From Podarcis gaigeae (Eukaryota): DNA of 64,000 bases. This document shows positions 11,859 to 64,000 of the stretch, in pieces (position 1 is the stretch's first letter; each line of letters starts with the position of its first letter). The stretch lies in assembly GCA_964106915.2 (NCBI GenBank), contig OZ066916.1. One strand, written 5' to 3'. Under the pieces are notes generated by a model. That model made no database searches. It was not told where the DNA came from and saw only the letters and a list, made by a program, of their open reading frames with translations. Both the position numbers and the translations under genes were made by a program.

Positions 11859-11993
11859 GTGAAAGGTCCCCCAGCAGCAGGAGCATTTAAAGAAAGACCA
11901 ACAAAGCCTACAGCATTTCGCAAGTTTTATGAGCGAGGTGACTTCCCAATCGCCCTTGAGCACGATACAAGAGGAAACAAAATAGCCTGGAAG
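11859..11993 (+). CDS. PACRG: PACRG internal coding exon (orthologous to mammalian exon 2), 135 bp, phase 0/0
   Basis: T-rich tract plus AG at 11857-11858 and GTAAGT donor at 11994. Translates without stops as [45 protein letters not shown], which matches the remembered PACRG segment ([43 protein letters not shown]). Confidence 0.96.
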
Positions 11994-13222
11994 GTAAGTC
12001 AGGGCGCAGCTGTGACAGCCAGCTGCGCTTATTGAAGTGACATCTCTCATTGCCAAAAAAACGTAGGCTTATAAGTAAATAAAGTGGAGTAATTTCTTAG
12101 CAAATAGAAGATGGTGGGAGAGCAGTTAGAGAGTGGCCTCCTGAGTCAGCCATCTACCTTGGCTAACAATTAAATTATATGCTGCAAAAAAGGAAAATGA
12201 CAGAGTTGCTTTGCCTTAGAGAATTGTCTCCCGCTCAATTCATCTCTATTTTTATGAGGACCTGGCAACCCAGCCTATTTCAGGCAGTCCATCAAATGAT
12301 GGAAGTGGCTGGATACAGTGAGCAGCAGCCATTTATCTCCCCCCAAATTTCACCTTCCTGCAGGACAGTTCCAAATGGAAGCTTTAATTACCTAAATGGA
12401 TAGGTCAAGATTGCCTGCTCCCTTGAAATGCAGAGCAGAATACAAACGAAGGCAGATTCTCATTCCACGGCTGCACTCCCAGTCTGCAGCATATGTCAGA
12501 CAGCGTAATCGCTGTCATACGTGCCCCTGTTAGAGGCTGACCTCCACTGCTGAAACCATTATGGTTCCGACATCTCTGACAAAAGGTTAATTGGCTTCAA
12601 AATAAATGTATTGCCTAATGACTTCATTCTAATGCAGCAGTGTTTCTCTCTAAAAGGCTTGGTGATGTTATTTGTAAAACTTGCCAATCTTTTAAGTAAC
12701 TAGAGCAGGCTTTTAAATTTAATTTGAAAAATGAATGCTGATCTTTAACCTGCTCTTTCTATTTAATTATTTTGGTTATCAAAGAATGACTTTCCTTTTA
12801 TGTATGTGTGTGTGTGTTGGGGTGACTGTGTGTCTCTGTATGCAATTTATTGGGCTGGGTTCAGATTTTTCTGGAAACAGAATAAAGGATAACCCAAAAA
12901 TTGGGCATTCTTTGAATGAGGGAGAAAAGACCTAACTTATTATTTGGATGTTTATGTGGGTCCTGTTGAAAATGACCTTAATTTAAGCTGCTGTAGTTTT
13001 GTTAATAAAAACAAAAACAGATATGACTAGTAGGGTCACTGAGTGAATAATATTTACTGTATTATTTATGAAATGACTAAACAATTTGTTATGTACAAAA
13101 CATATCAAACAATTAGATCCTACCTGCAAGTTTTTAATATAATTTAATGGATGCATTTGGCTCCGTTTTTAGATGGGCACAACTAATGATCTAACAGAAA
13201 ATTGAATTTCTGCTTGACATTA

Positions 13223-13445
13223 CAAAAAAAATTCCTTCCAGTAGCACCTTAAAGACCAACTAAGTTAGTTCTTGGCATGAGCTTTCGTGTGCATGCTTCA
13301 GGTGCTTCGTGTGCTTCAGGTATCTGAAGAAGTGTGCATGCACACGAAAGCTCATATCAAGAACTAACTTAGTTGGTCTTTAAGGTGCTACTGGAAGGAA
13401 ATTTTTTTGTTTTGACTATGGCAGACCAACACGGCTACCTATCTG
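13223..13445 (+). mobile_element. Penelope-like element remnant (inverted pseudo-LTR palindrome)
   Basis: 74-bp inverted arms at 13223-13296 and 13336-13409 (3 mismatches), then GCAGACCAACACGGCTACC. Flanked by the 13-bp direct repeat CTGCTTGACATTA (13210-13222, 13446-13458). Contains a hammerhead core. Confidence 0.82.
13319..13358 (+). ncRNA. Minimal type I hammerhead ribozyme motif (Penelope-associated)
   Basis: Stem I GGTAT(13319-23)/ATATC(13354-58), CTGAAGA box (13324-30), stem II GTGTG-CATG-CACAC (13332-45), GAAA box (13346-49), palindromic AGCT in place of stem III. Predicted cleavage after C13353. Confidence 0.72.
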
Positions 13446-13466
13446 CTGCTTGACATTAGTAACAGA

Positions 13467-13668
13467 CAGTGGCGTAGCGTGGGGGGTGCAGGGGGGGCCG
13501 GCCGCACCGGGCGCAACATCTGGAGGTTAGGGAAATCCACGGGTTAGGGGGCGCAAATCCACGGGTTAGGGGGTGCAAATCCACGGGTTAGGGGGTGCAA
13601 ATCCATGGGTTAGGGGGCGCAAATTACTGGCCTTGCCCCGGGTGCTGATAGCCCACGCTACGCCACTG
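13467..13668. mobile_element. hAT MITE with internal 22-bp tandem repeats
   Basis: TIRs CAGTGGCGTAGCGTGGG / CCCACGCTACGCCACTG. Perfect 8-bp TSD GTAACAGA (13459-13466, 13669-13676). Confidence 0.92.
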
Positions 13669-14844
13669 GTAACAGAGTAACAACAGAAGAAAACTTTGTT
13701 TTTACTTCCATGGTGGTAACATGCCATCCATTTTATAAGAAAAGTCACGTAGTAGATCATTGAAGATATTGTAATGCATGCTTTCTTGTATGATTGCATG
13801 TTACTGATTATATAAAGTTTTATATGAATATTTATATGACACTATCAATTTATGCTTAATTGGTTGTATCCAGTAATGGCTTAAATGAGCAGAAGCATTT
13901 TCCAGTGAAGGCAGAGGCACAATTAGATACATCCAATATGTTTTATTTTTTTCTTAAGGCTTATGATCAATACAATAATACATTTGATTTGAATGAATGC
14001 ACAAAGGAAAGGGAATGCAGGGGAGAAGTGGAGAGAAACAGGAATACAAGTATGAAAACAGTTTAACTGAAGTAGATAAGTTTTAAGATTTTTTAAAGTA
14101 TTATTTTAAAGGGGGGAGCAAGGAGATGCACAGAACAATAAGAAATAACGGGTTTCTTCAGTATATTTAGTCACTGTTTTCCAGTGATATTATGTTACCT
14201 TGTCCTAGGCTGCAAATGCCAGCAAAAGGTAATAAAGTGGGAAGCACCATGTACAAGCTACCGTTTAATCCTATGGCGGGCCCAGCATCTACCTTGACAT
14301 CATCTGATGAGCTTCTGGCTCCTTTGCATACTTTATCCATGCATGTGACAGAGATTAAGGCCTTAACAAATGTGCTGCAAGTCTCAGGGGGGAATATCCA
14401 GCACAAGGTGGGAGTGGAGAACCAAGAGCAGCAAGCCTCATCTGCTTTGAAGACCTTACAGGCCTGCATTCCAAGATGGCAAACCTGAAGGGAGAAGCTG
14501 CAGGAATAATCTTTGTTTGGTGAAGGTGAGACAAGGAGCAGAGAGAGGGCATTCTACTACTTTTGTCCGAGAGGTGCTTGCTCTCCTGGAGAGATATGTG
14601 TTAAGAGTATGCCCTGGTTCCTCTGTCTAGAGGCAAAATTTGCCTTAGGGCCATCCTTGTGAAATTCTTGTGTTCCCCTTATGAAGGAGGATTTGCTGAG
14701 CTGGGTGTAATAAAAGAGTTATCTTGGGGGGCACTTAATGATGTAATTAGGATTTCCCCTGATTAGCATAATAGGCACAAATAGCTTTCACAGGGCATGA
14801 AGAATGAATGGCACAGGAAAGAAATTTGACCTTACATTCAGTTT

Positions 14845-63454: not shown

Positions 63455-64000
63455 TATATTTATTGTCCATGCCAGTTTGCTATGTTTAATTTTAGTTCTG
63501 GAACTGTTTTCAGTTTTCCCGTTTGGTATCTAAAACATTTCCCAGCAATAGTTCCCAAACCAACACATTAACAAAGCTGTAATTAATAATGTTGGAAATA
63601 AATGATAATTTCTTATCGTTCTTTCTTCACATTTTTAATAGTAATCAGCATTTATTGTGCAAAGAAAATGTGACTAATTGAGCAAGGTGGGAGGTGACAT
63701 CAATTCAAAATGCTTAAAATAAGCTGAAGAACAAGAAAACACAAATTACATGAAAGCTTCAAGCACCCAGGGAATTCAAAAAAGTTTCAGGCTCCACAGT
63801 ATCCTTTGCAGGTCAAAGGTTATTTAACTCATGCCCATTTTACATACAAGCTTGATTAATGCTTGATCTAGTGCAAGGCTATCACTATTTATTTGTACTA
63901 TGAATATTTTACAAGGAGGGACAAATTGACTGCCTGCCTGCCTAGCAGTACAGTATATTAAATACCCTCCCTTTTGCATAGAATCCAGTTGAAGTTTTGT

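Follow-up and report, generated by a model that had tools for sequence, protein, structure and literature searches.

The hammerhead ribozyme motif at positions 13319–13358 of the window (the whole 64-kb stretch of DNA that was analysed) is real and not a chance match. With a probability of about 0.88, it is best read as a passenger in a fold-back copy of a Neptune-type Penelope-like element (PLE), predicted to sit caught inside a 75-bp hairpin of the PACRG pre-mRNA, where it likely never cuts. For PACRG itself the most likely consequence is no effect, the insertion being one young dead-end stub among thousands.

The motif is a minimal type I hammerhead at 13320–13358 on the + strand, with the architecture given in PMC4209133 (excerpts of this and of all papers cited below were used). 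Stem I consists of GTAT at 13320–13323 and the strand at 13354–13357 (ATATC being 13354–13358), and is followed by the CUGAAGA box (13324–13330), a bulged A13331, stem II (GTGTGCATGCACAC, 13332–13345, closed by G13332–C13345) and, at 13346–13348, the GAA of the GAAA box. A palindromic AGCU (AGCT in the DNA, 13349–13352) replaces stem III, and the predicted cut falls after C13353, where a UH triplet is present. In PLE pLTRs, minimal hammerheads have a helix II of 6–7 bp, a helix I of 4 bp, no helix III, an unpaired base after A9, a G10.1–C11.1 pair and a palindromic 15.2–16.2 (PMC4209133, excerpts); the boxes, the bulge after A9, G10.1–C11.1, the palindrome and a helix I of 4–5 bp were all found here. 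Both catalytic boxes, stem II and the AGCT palindrome agree in coordinates and letters with a preliminary description of this DNA.

Detection was based on a strict descriptor (stem I of at least 4 bp, CUGANGA, optional bulge, G–C-closed stem II, GAA, palindrome and UH), which gave one match on the + strand and none on the − strand of the window, and no match in 200 Markov-1 control windows. In the one family sampled, 223 of 233 descriptor matches among fetched homologous loci were one single sequence. A loose two-box pattern was not above chance (12 matches, 6.7 expected); CTGAAGA...GAAAGCTT at 63724–63760 fits this pattern, lacks a stem II, fails the strict descriptor and is probably a chance match. 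A covariance scan against Rfam, put forward earlier as a check, found no hammerhead family up to E=10 at this locus or in a native copy, and returned only sub-threshold miRNA-like matches to the hairpin; such a miss is expected because the motif has no stem III.

Stem I had been described as 5 bp with one G-U pair. The letters are correct (GGTAT at 13319–13323), but the family stem I is 4 bp, GTAT/ATAC, and the first base, G13319, lies outside it: this is a junction base, with T at the same place in native copies. T13357 is a private C>T and the sole difference from copy L027 across the 126 nt of the sense arm; C is found at the equivalent position in about 99% of family depth. A 5-bp stem I as a designed feature was thus rejected, as it arises from the junction G plus a private mutation.

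Family identity was established from longer copies. The same pLTR end lies downstream of a GIY-YIG ORF in L027, and in L140 it accompanies an 813-aa open frame with RVT_1 (PF00078) and GIY-YIG (PF01541); the hammerhead lies within the PLE pLTR in L027 and in L140–L144. Because the single ORF has an RVT_1 reverse transcriptase (RT) and, at its C terminus, GIY-YIG, the element is an endonuclease-positive PLE, and the earlier assignment to the Penelope-type minimal type I hammerheads is borne out by this linkage. A CX4CXXC linker (CNKPRCQLC) between RT and endonuclease occurs in both L027 and L140. From this linker and the vertebrate host, which fits the distribution of Neptune, we infer that the element is Neptune-type. 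Linkers of the form CX2-5CxxC are common to Neptune and Nematis PLEs (PMC8557442, excerpts). Exact 31-nt cores number 11,411 genome-wide (5,699+5,712), and exact copies of a 26-nt tail motif number 8,075. At L140:3582–3650 an older, diverged stub of this kind (87% identity, with G12>A and C17>U) precedes the 813-aa frame by about 160 nt. G12, a CpG position, is the commonest mutated core base (9 of 126), as would be expected in the absence of selection after insertion.

The motif begins 1,326 nt past the end of a 135-nt PACRG coding exon (11859–11993, + strand, AG/GT flanks, open translation), in keeping with the distance of about 1.3 kb noted before. This exon matched Pfam ParcG with E 2e-6 over 45 aa, and measuring on to the following ParcG exon, at G000:C3:70441902, gives an intron length of about 59.9 kb. 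Exact cores are expected 0.45 times per 59.9 kb, and a hammerhead in the PACRG intron is what chance placement gives. No second hammerhead copy was found in the 64-kb window, which covers the intron bar its last ~8 kb.

The core sits in a 223-bp fold-back insertion (13223–13445) flanked by a 13-bp direct repeat, CTGCTTGACATTA, on the + strand at 13210–13222 (left copy) and 13446–13458 (right copy). An inverted arm at 13222–13296 (− strand, element +20..+94) is 96% complementary to 13336–13410 and lacks the CUGAAGA box; with no descriptor match on the − strand, the earlier claim that a complete core exists on the PACRG sense strand alone is upheld. Between the arms, a junction filler (13297–13318) is made up of short slipped pieces of the element, and comparable fillers occur in sister copies. 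CTTCAG at 13314–13319 is able to pair with CTGAAG at 13324–13329, and therefore the first catalytic box can be blocked. The extra G at 13319 on the + strand, before element +4, is probably cap-derived or untemplated. Then follows the sense arm at 13320–13445 (+ strand, element +4..+129), the 5' end of a Neptune-type PLE transcript with part of the pLTR and a one-sided tail of 35 nt (13411–13445, + strand). Within the tail, the ATG at 13418 (MADQHGYLS) is the likely ORF start, because in longer copies it continues in frame into MEGTTLSR.

The contig of related organism F joins 13222 directly to 13669, an empty site, and organism F therefore has neither the stub nor a neighbouring MITE; by this comparison the insertion is young and lineage-limited. 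The MITE (202 bp, 13467–13668, with 17-bp TIRs, an 8-bp TSD GTAACAGA and 22-bp internal tandem repeats) is presumably hAT-like, going by its TSD length; it is separate from the ribozyme element and was inserted 8 nt past the Penelope TSD. In X2 and X4 the contigs pick up again at 13669, past 39 unaligned letters, an indication that these two also lack the MITE, which may be polymorphic.

Folding was assessed by equilibrium prediction, and the penalty for a hammerhead-ready state was calculated with stems I and II forced and the core left free. The + strand region is predicted to fold as a single hairpin (−151.5 kcal/mol, z −19), a near-perfect 75-bp helix 1.2 kb from the PACRG donor site. The predicted penalty was 1.2 kcal/mol for the isolated 40-mer, 3.4–8.4 kcal/mol with the filler only, 23.7 kcal/mol for nascent RNA ending at 13358 and 32.2 kcal/mol for the whole insertion. 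The prediction has the 75-nt arm, which is transcribed earlier, base-paired with G12-A13-A14, with the cleavage site and with the 3' strand of stem I, and beating the ribozyme fold by 24–32 kcal/mol. The preliminary description had offered silencing by the upstream arm as one outcome, and this is the best reading of the penalties. Its other suggestion, that nascent PACRG RNA cleaves itself or acts in trans, found no support, given that the arm is made first, that the window has no second copy and that monomers are inactive in vitro (PMC4209133, excerpts). Self-cleavage in PACRG is unlikely because the arm is predicted to outcompete the fold and because a relative's copies are edited and read through the cut site; taking cis and trans together, a working ribozyme in the PACRG pre-mRNA is improbable.

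Cleavage of the nascent intron RNA after C13353, as a monomer or cis dimer and with an effect on splicing or transcription, would draw on all core nucleotides being intact on the sense strand, on an isolated 40-mer predicted to fold with stems I and II, and on co-transcriptional kinetics, which might let the local fold form for a short time. A point against the trapped-core reading is that the hairpin could be loosened by proteins or by A-to-I editing. The blocking arm nevertheless precedes the core and sets the penalty of 23.7 kcal/mol already at 13358, a cis dimer would have no partner copy in the 64-kb window, and minimal hammerhead monomers did not cleave in vitro while dimers cleaved little (PMC4209133, excerpts). 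In Anolis, the Poseidon hammerhead needed the element's protein in order to cut, and RNA-seq showed no ends at its site (PMC11167929, excerpts). We consider cis cleavage extremely improbable.

Action in trans, in which the intronic core would join a second Penelope transcript through AGCU and either cleave that RNA or be cleaved itself, is very improbable. Thousands of identical cores exist in the genome and the family sequence is transcribed in a relative; against this, the core is predicted to be already engaged in cis pairing, the dimer of lowest predicted energy is held together by the 14-nt palindrome of stem II and not by AGCU, and a 4-bp intermolecular stem III is no match for the 75-bp helix. 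It is also highly unlikely that the hairpin was co-opted by the host as a regulatory dsRNA for PACRG, as an ADAR or splicing element: a near-perfect 75-bp helix does lie 1.2 kb from the donor site and family hairpins are edited, but the insertion is young (1 difference in 126 nt), is absent in organism F, and is one among thousands of similar stubs with no sign of conservation.

Family RNA was followed in raw reads of related organism E, taken from four runs of two studies (6–12% of each run was read). The reads were placed on copy L152 and pool all copies of another species rather than the PACRG locus; L152 itself has no hammerhead, and read ends at +1/+4 or +38 are beyond its reach. At +66 (window 13382) A>G was strand-specific, with 0/282 against 88/295 in X23 and 3/272 against 133/242 in X24, and +67 behaved like +66; in genomic arms A>G at +66 was found in 0 of 135. 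Because the change is strand-specific in RNA and absent from genomic arms, family stubs form dsRNA in cells and are edited. In loose-end consensus groups of 62, 33 and 82 reads the catalytic GAAAG was read as GGGGG, and read groups of 121–300 ran unbroken across the cut site. At L152:1406–1441, and in the loose ends at 1426, hyper-editing includes A13, A14 and A15.1 of the core; editing of these bases would disable the hammerhead.

Element coordinates were numbered with +1 at the A of TCAGT. Native copies carry TATATAGAAG, then 20 nt, then TCAGT, so that +1 sits 30 nt past the first T of the TATA motif; L027:1475–1515 (element −30..+11) has a TATA-like box at −30 and TCAGT as an initiator-like motif. 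The hammerhead occupies element +4 to +41, with the predicted cut at +37/+38. For the scoring of insertion ends, tail matches on contig C1 were taken in order of position and without regard to their 5' end, the first 100 listed being used; 100 distinct tails, each with 400 nt or more upstream, were scored. The 30 homologous loci gathered first were kept out of the junction statistics because they had been picked by similarity to the window junction. The 5'-most point of either arm fell at −4..+6 in 51 of these 100 tails, at −41 or still more 5' in 25 (for some of these the 400-nt span set the limit), at −40..−5 in 3, at +7..+36 in 15, at +37..+40 in 2 (both +38) and beyond +40 in 4.

Junctions at +4 number 3,420 genome-wide, and among the first 100 listed a G precedes +4 in 76 (P 3e-18 against one third), with TG in 39, AG in 34 and CG in 3. 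We infer from these sequences a capped transcript starting at +1 to +4 and an extra C placed opposite its cap; cDNA snap-back on stem I could account for some of the G excess (the TG class, 39/100). Since G13319 belongs to this class of G before +4, the fifth stem I pair is a junction product. An intron acceptor (TTTCAG/TGTAT), as in D. virilis, was considered; a start site fits better because the bases before +4 vary without a common upstream exon. At the other end, tail arms end at +130..+135 in 80 of the 100 listed tails, and of 51 inverted arms scored, 43 begin near +91..+97 (approximate positions, the scoring limit being 97). These two clusters match the pair of internal RT start sites delimiting the tail in excerpts of PMC11167929. 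Thirty copies extending past the tail have an in-frame MADQHGYLSVTGTMEGTT start. Many copies among L145–L173 jump from about +175–200 back to +1..+4, forming short head-to-tail tandems, and in L154, L161 and L165/166 the unit is repeated, with two complete hammerheads about 170–190 nt apart. By their sequence such tandem copies are retrozyme-like and in principle able to dimerise in cis.

Thousands of near-identical copies allow 5' junctions to be counted base by base, and this was done at +36..+40 by requiring two non-consensus bases in front. Raw matches at +36, +37, +38, +39 and +40 numbered 32, 32, 66, 25 and 25. Because raw counts mix in microhomology joins, all five positions were reclassified after identical 80-nt contexts were counted once (28/32, 28/32 with 30 fetched, 55/66, 25/25 and 25/25 distinct contexts). 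Insertions without any arm further 5' then numbered 5, 6, 28, 8 and 9, an excess at +38 with a Poisson P of 2e-9 and a binomial P of 5e-7; once five palindromic joins that could be read as either +38 or +39 were removed, 23 remained (P 1e-6, binomial 4e-5). About 0.5–2% of insertions are of this kind, as were 2 of the 100 listed tails.

We give an even chance to this peak being a fossil of rare in-vivo cleavage of template RNA after C37, which would affect roughly 1 in 100 insertions, most others coming from a capped uncut transcript. A process at the DNA level could have made the same peak, whereby cDNA reaching +4 folds back on the stem I copy (ATAC on GTAT) and the loop is trimmed, or the fold's edge makes RT pause. 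Of the 55 contexts at +38, some 17 are indeed a left arm reaching +4 joined at ATAC, and the stem I edge coincides with the scissile bond in every hammerhead. However, at least six multi-arm insertions (L191, L201, L204, L207, L210 and L226) have every arm ending at +38 to +40 with no arm going further, clean +38 junctions do not share the excess of G in front (5/32, against 76/100 first listed at +4), and a 4–5-bp DNA stem around a 30-nt loop is weak. We place the DNA-level origin somewhat below even odds. In searches of the main texts of open-access papers, neither the +38 junction excess nor the cap-like G was found.

If cleavage of the template did produce the peak, this would be in-vivo evidence that a metazoan PLE minimal hammerhead cleaves, and the peak should depend on the catalytic core. 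The minimal hammerhead would then be a rare self-decapping switch at the transcript 5' end, not a cutter of tandem precursors, because competence of the fold is predicted solely for RNA that begins at +1 to +4. Native RNA starting at +1..+4 had a predicted penalty of 1.2–1.4 kcal/mol and read-through RNA, in which UUCAG pairs with CUGAA, one of 3.2–4.5 kcal/mol, a gap that lies within prediction error. Pairing of the upstream UUCAG with CUGAA only in read-through RNA would be a possible built-in switch.

The proposed course of events, which would account for a trapped passenger in PACRG, is as follows. Element RNA would start about 30 nt after the TATA box, at +1 to +4, so that the hammerhead would take up the initial ~42 nt of a capped transcript. 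Reverse transcription would be primed internally by the PLE protein, near +130–135 and near +91–97, and RT would run off the uncleaved 5' end and add a C opposite the cap. Both cDNA products may then be joined via snap-back or microhomology into a hairpin stub, with the inverted arm arising from twin priming or serial snap-back. During PACRG transcription the inverted arm would emerge first and pair with the core, and at the family level such hairpins would be ADAR substrates.

By sequence, the motif and the insertion match the described PLE minimal hammerhead and the inverted-copy-plus-tail form. Exapted intronic hammerheads of amniotes (HH9/HH10 type) have a canonical, monomer-active fold and are conserved at an orthologous site. 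An exapted hammerhead of that type was rejected here, as there is no stem III, no Rfam match and an empty site in organism F. Non-LTR retrozymes have tandem units with at least two complete hammerheads (10.64898/2026.07.22.740005, excerpts), and this type was set aside for the PACRG locus with its single core. Minimal hammerheads are mostly dispersed single copies from truncated PLEs, including fish Neptune and elements of turtles and snakes (Cervera and De la Pena 2014, PMC4209133, excerpts). The motif described here is identical to these in architecture; no evidence of cleavage in vivo is reported in the excerpts of that paper, and the +38 junction excess would be indirect evidence of cleavage. 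The function of PLE hammerheads is called unclear (PMC8557442, excerpts).

Inverted-copy insertions of endonuclease-positive PLEs (Craig et al. 2021, PMC8557442; Adineta Pen2a, PMC3846280; excerpts of both) share with this one the inverted arm, the TSD, the one-sided tail (30–40 nt there, 35 nt here), a TATA and Inr-like motif in the pLTR and the first ORF codons in the tail; here, a stub without the ORF body is the commonest form (71 of 100 listed tails with an inverted arm). In Anolis carolinensis Poseidon, RT initiates internally at two sites bounding the tail, uncleaved RNA is the main template and in-vitro insertion does not need the hammerhead (Frangieh et al. 2024, PMC11167929, excerpts). 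The two internal RT start sites and the uncleaved template are shared. The present element differs in being Neptune-type by its zinc-finger-like linker, in a hammerhead lying about 60 nt before the likely ATG where that of Poseidon lies over the ATG, and in a small cut-site peak among genomic copies, whereas no RNA-seq ends were seen at the Poseidon site. Penelope has been named a massively edited repeat in lizard, with over 40,000 sites (Porath et al. 2017, PMC5625713, excerpts); editing is common to both, there without a link in the excerpts to fold-back stubs or the hammerhead core. A self-contained hairpin in each stub would be a simple explanation for this heavy A-to-I editing of Penelope in lizard.
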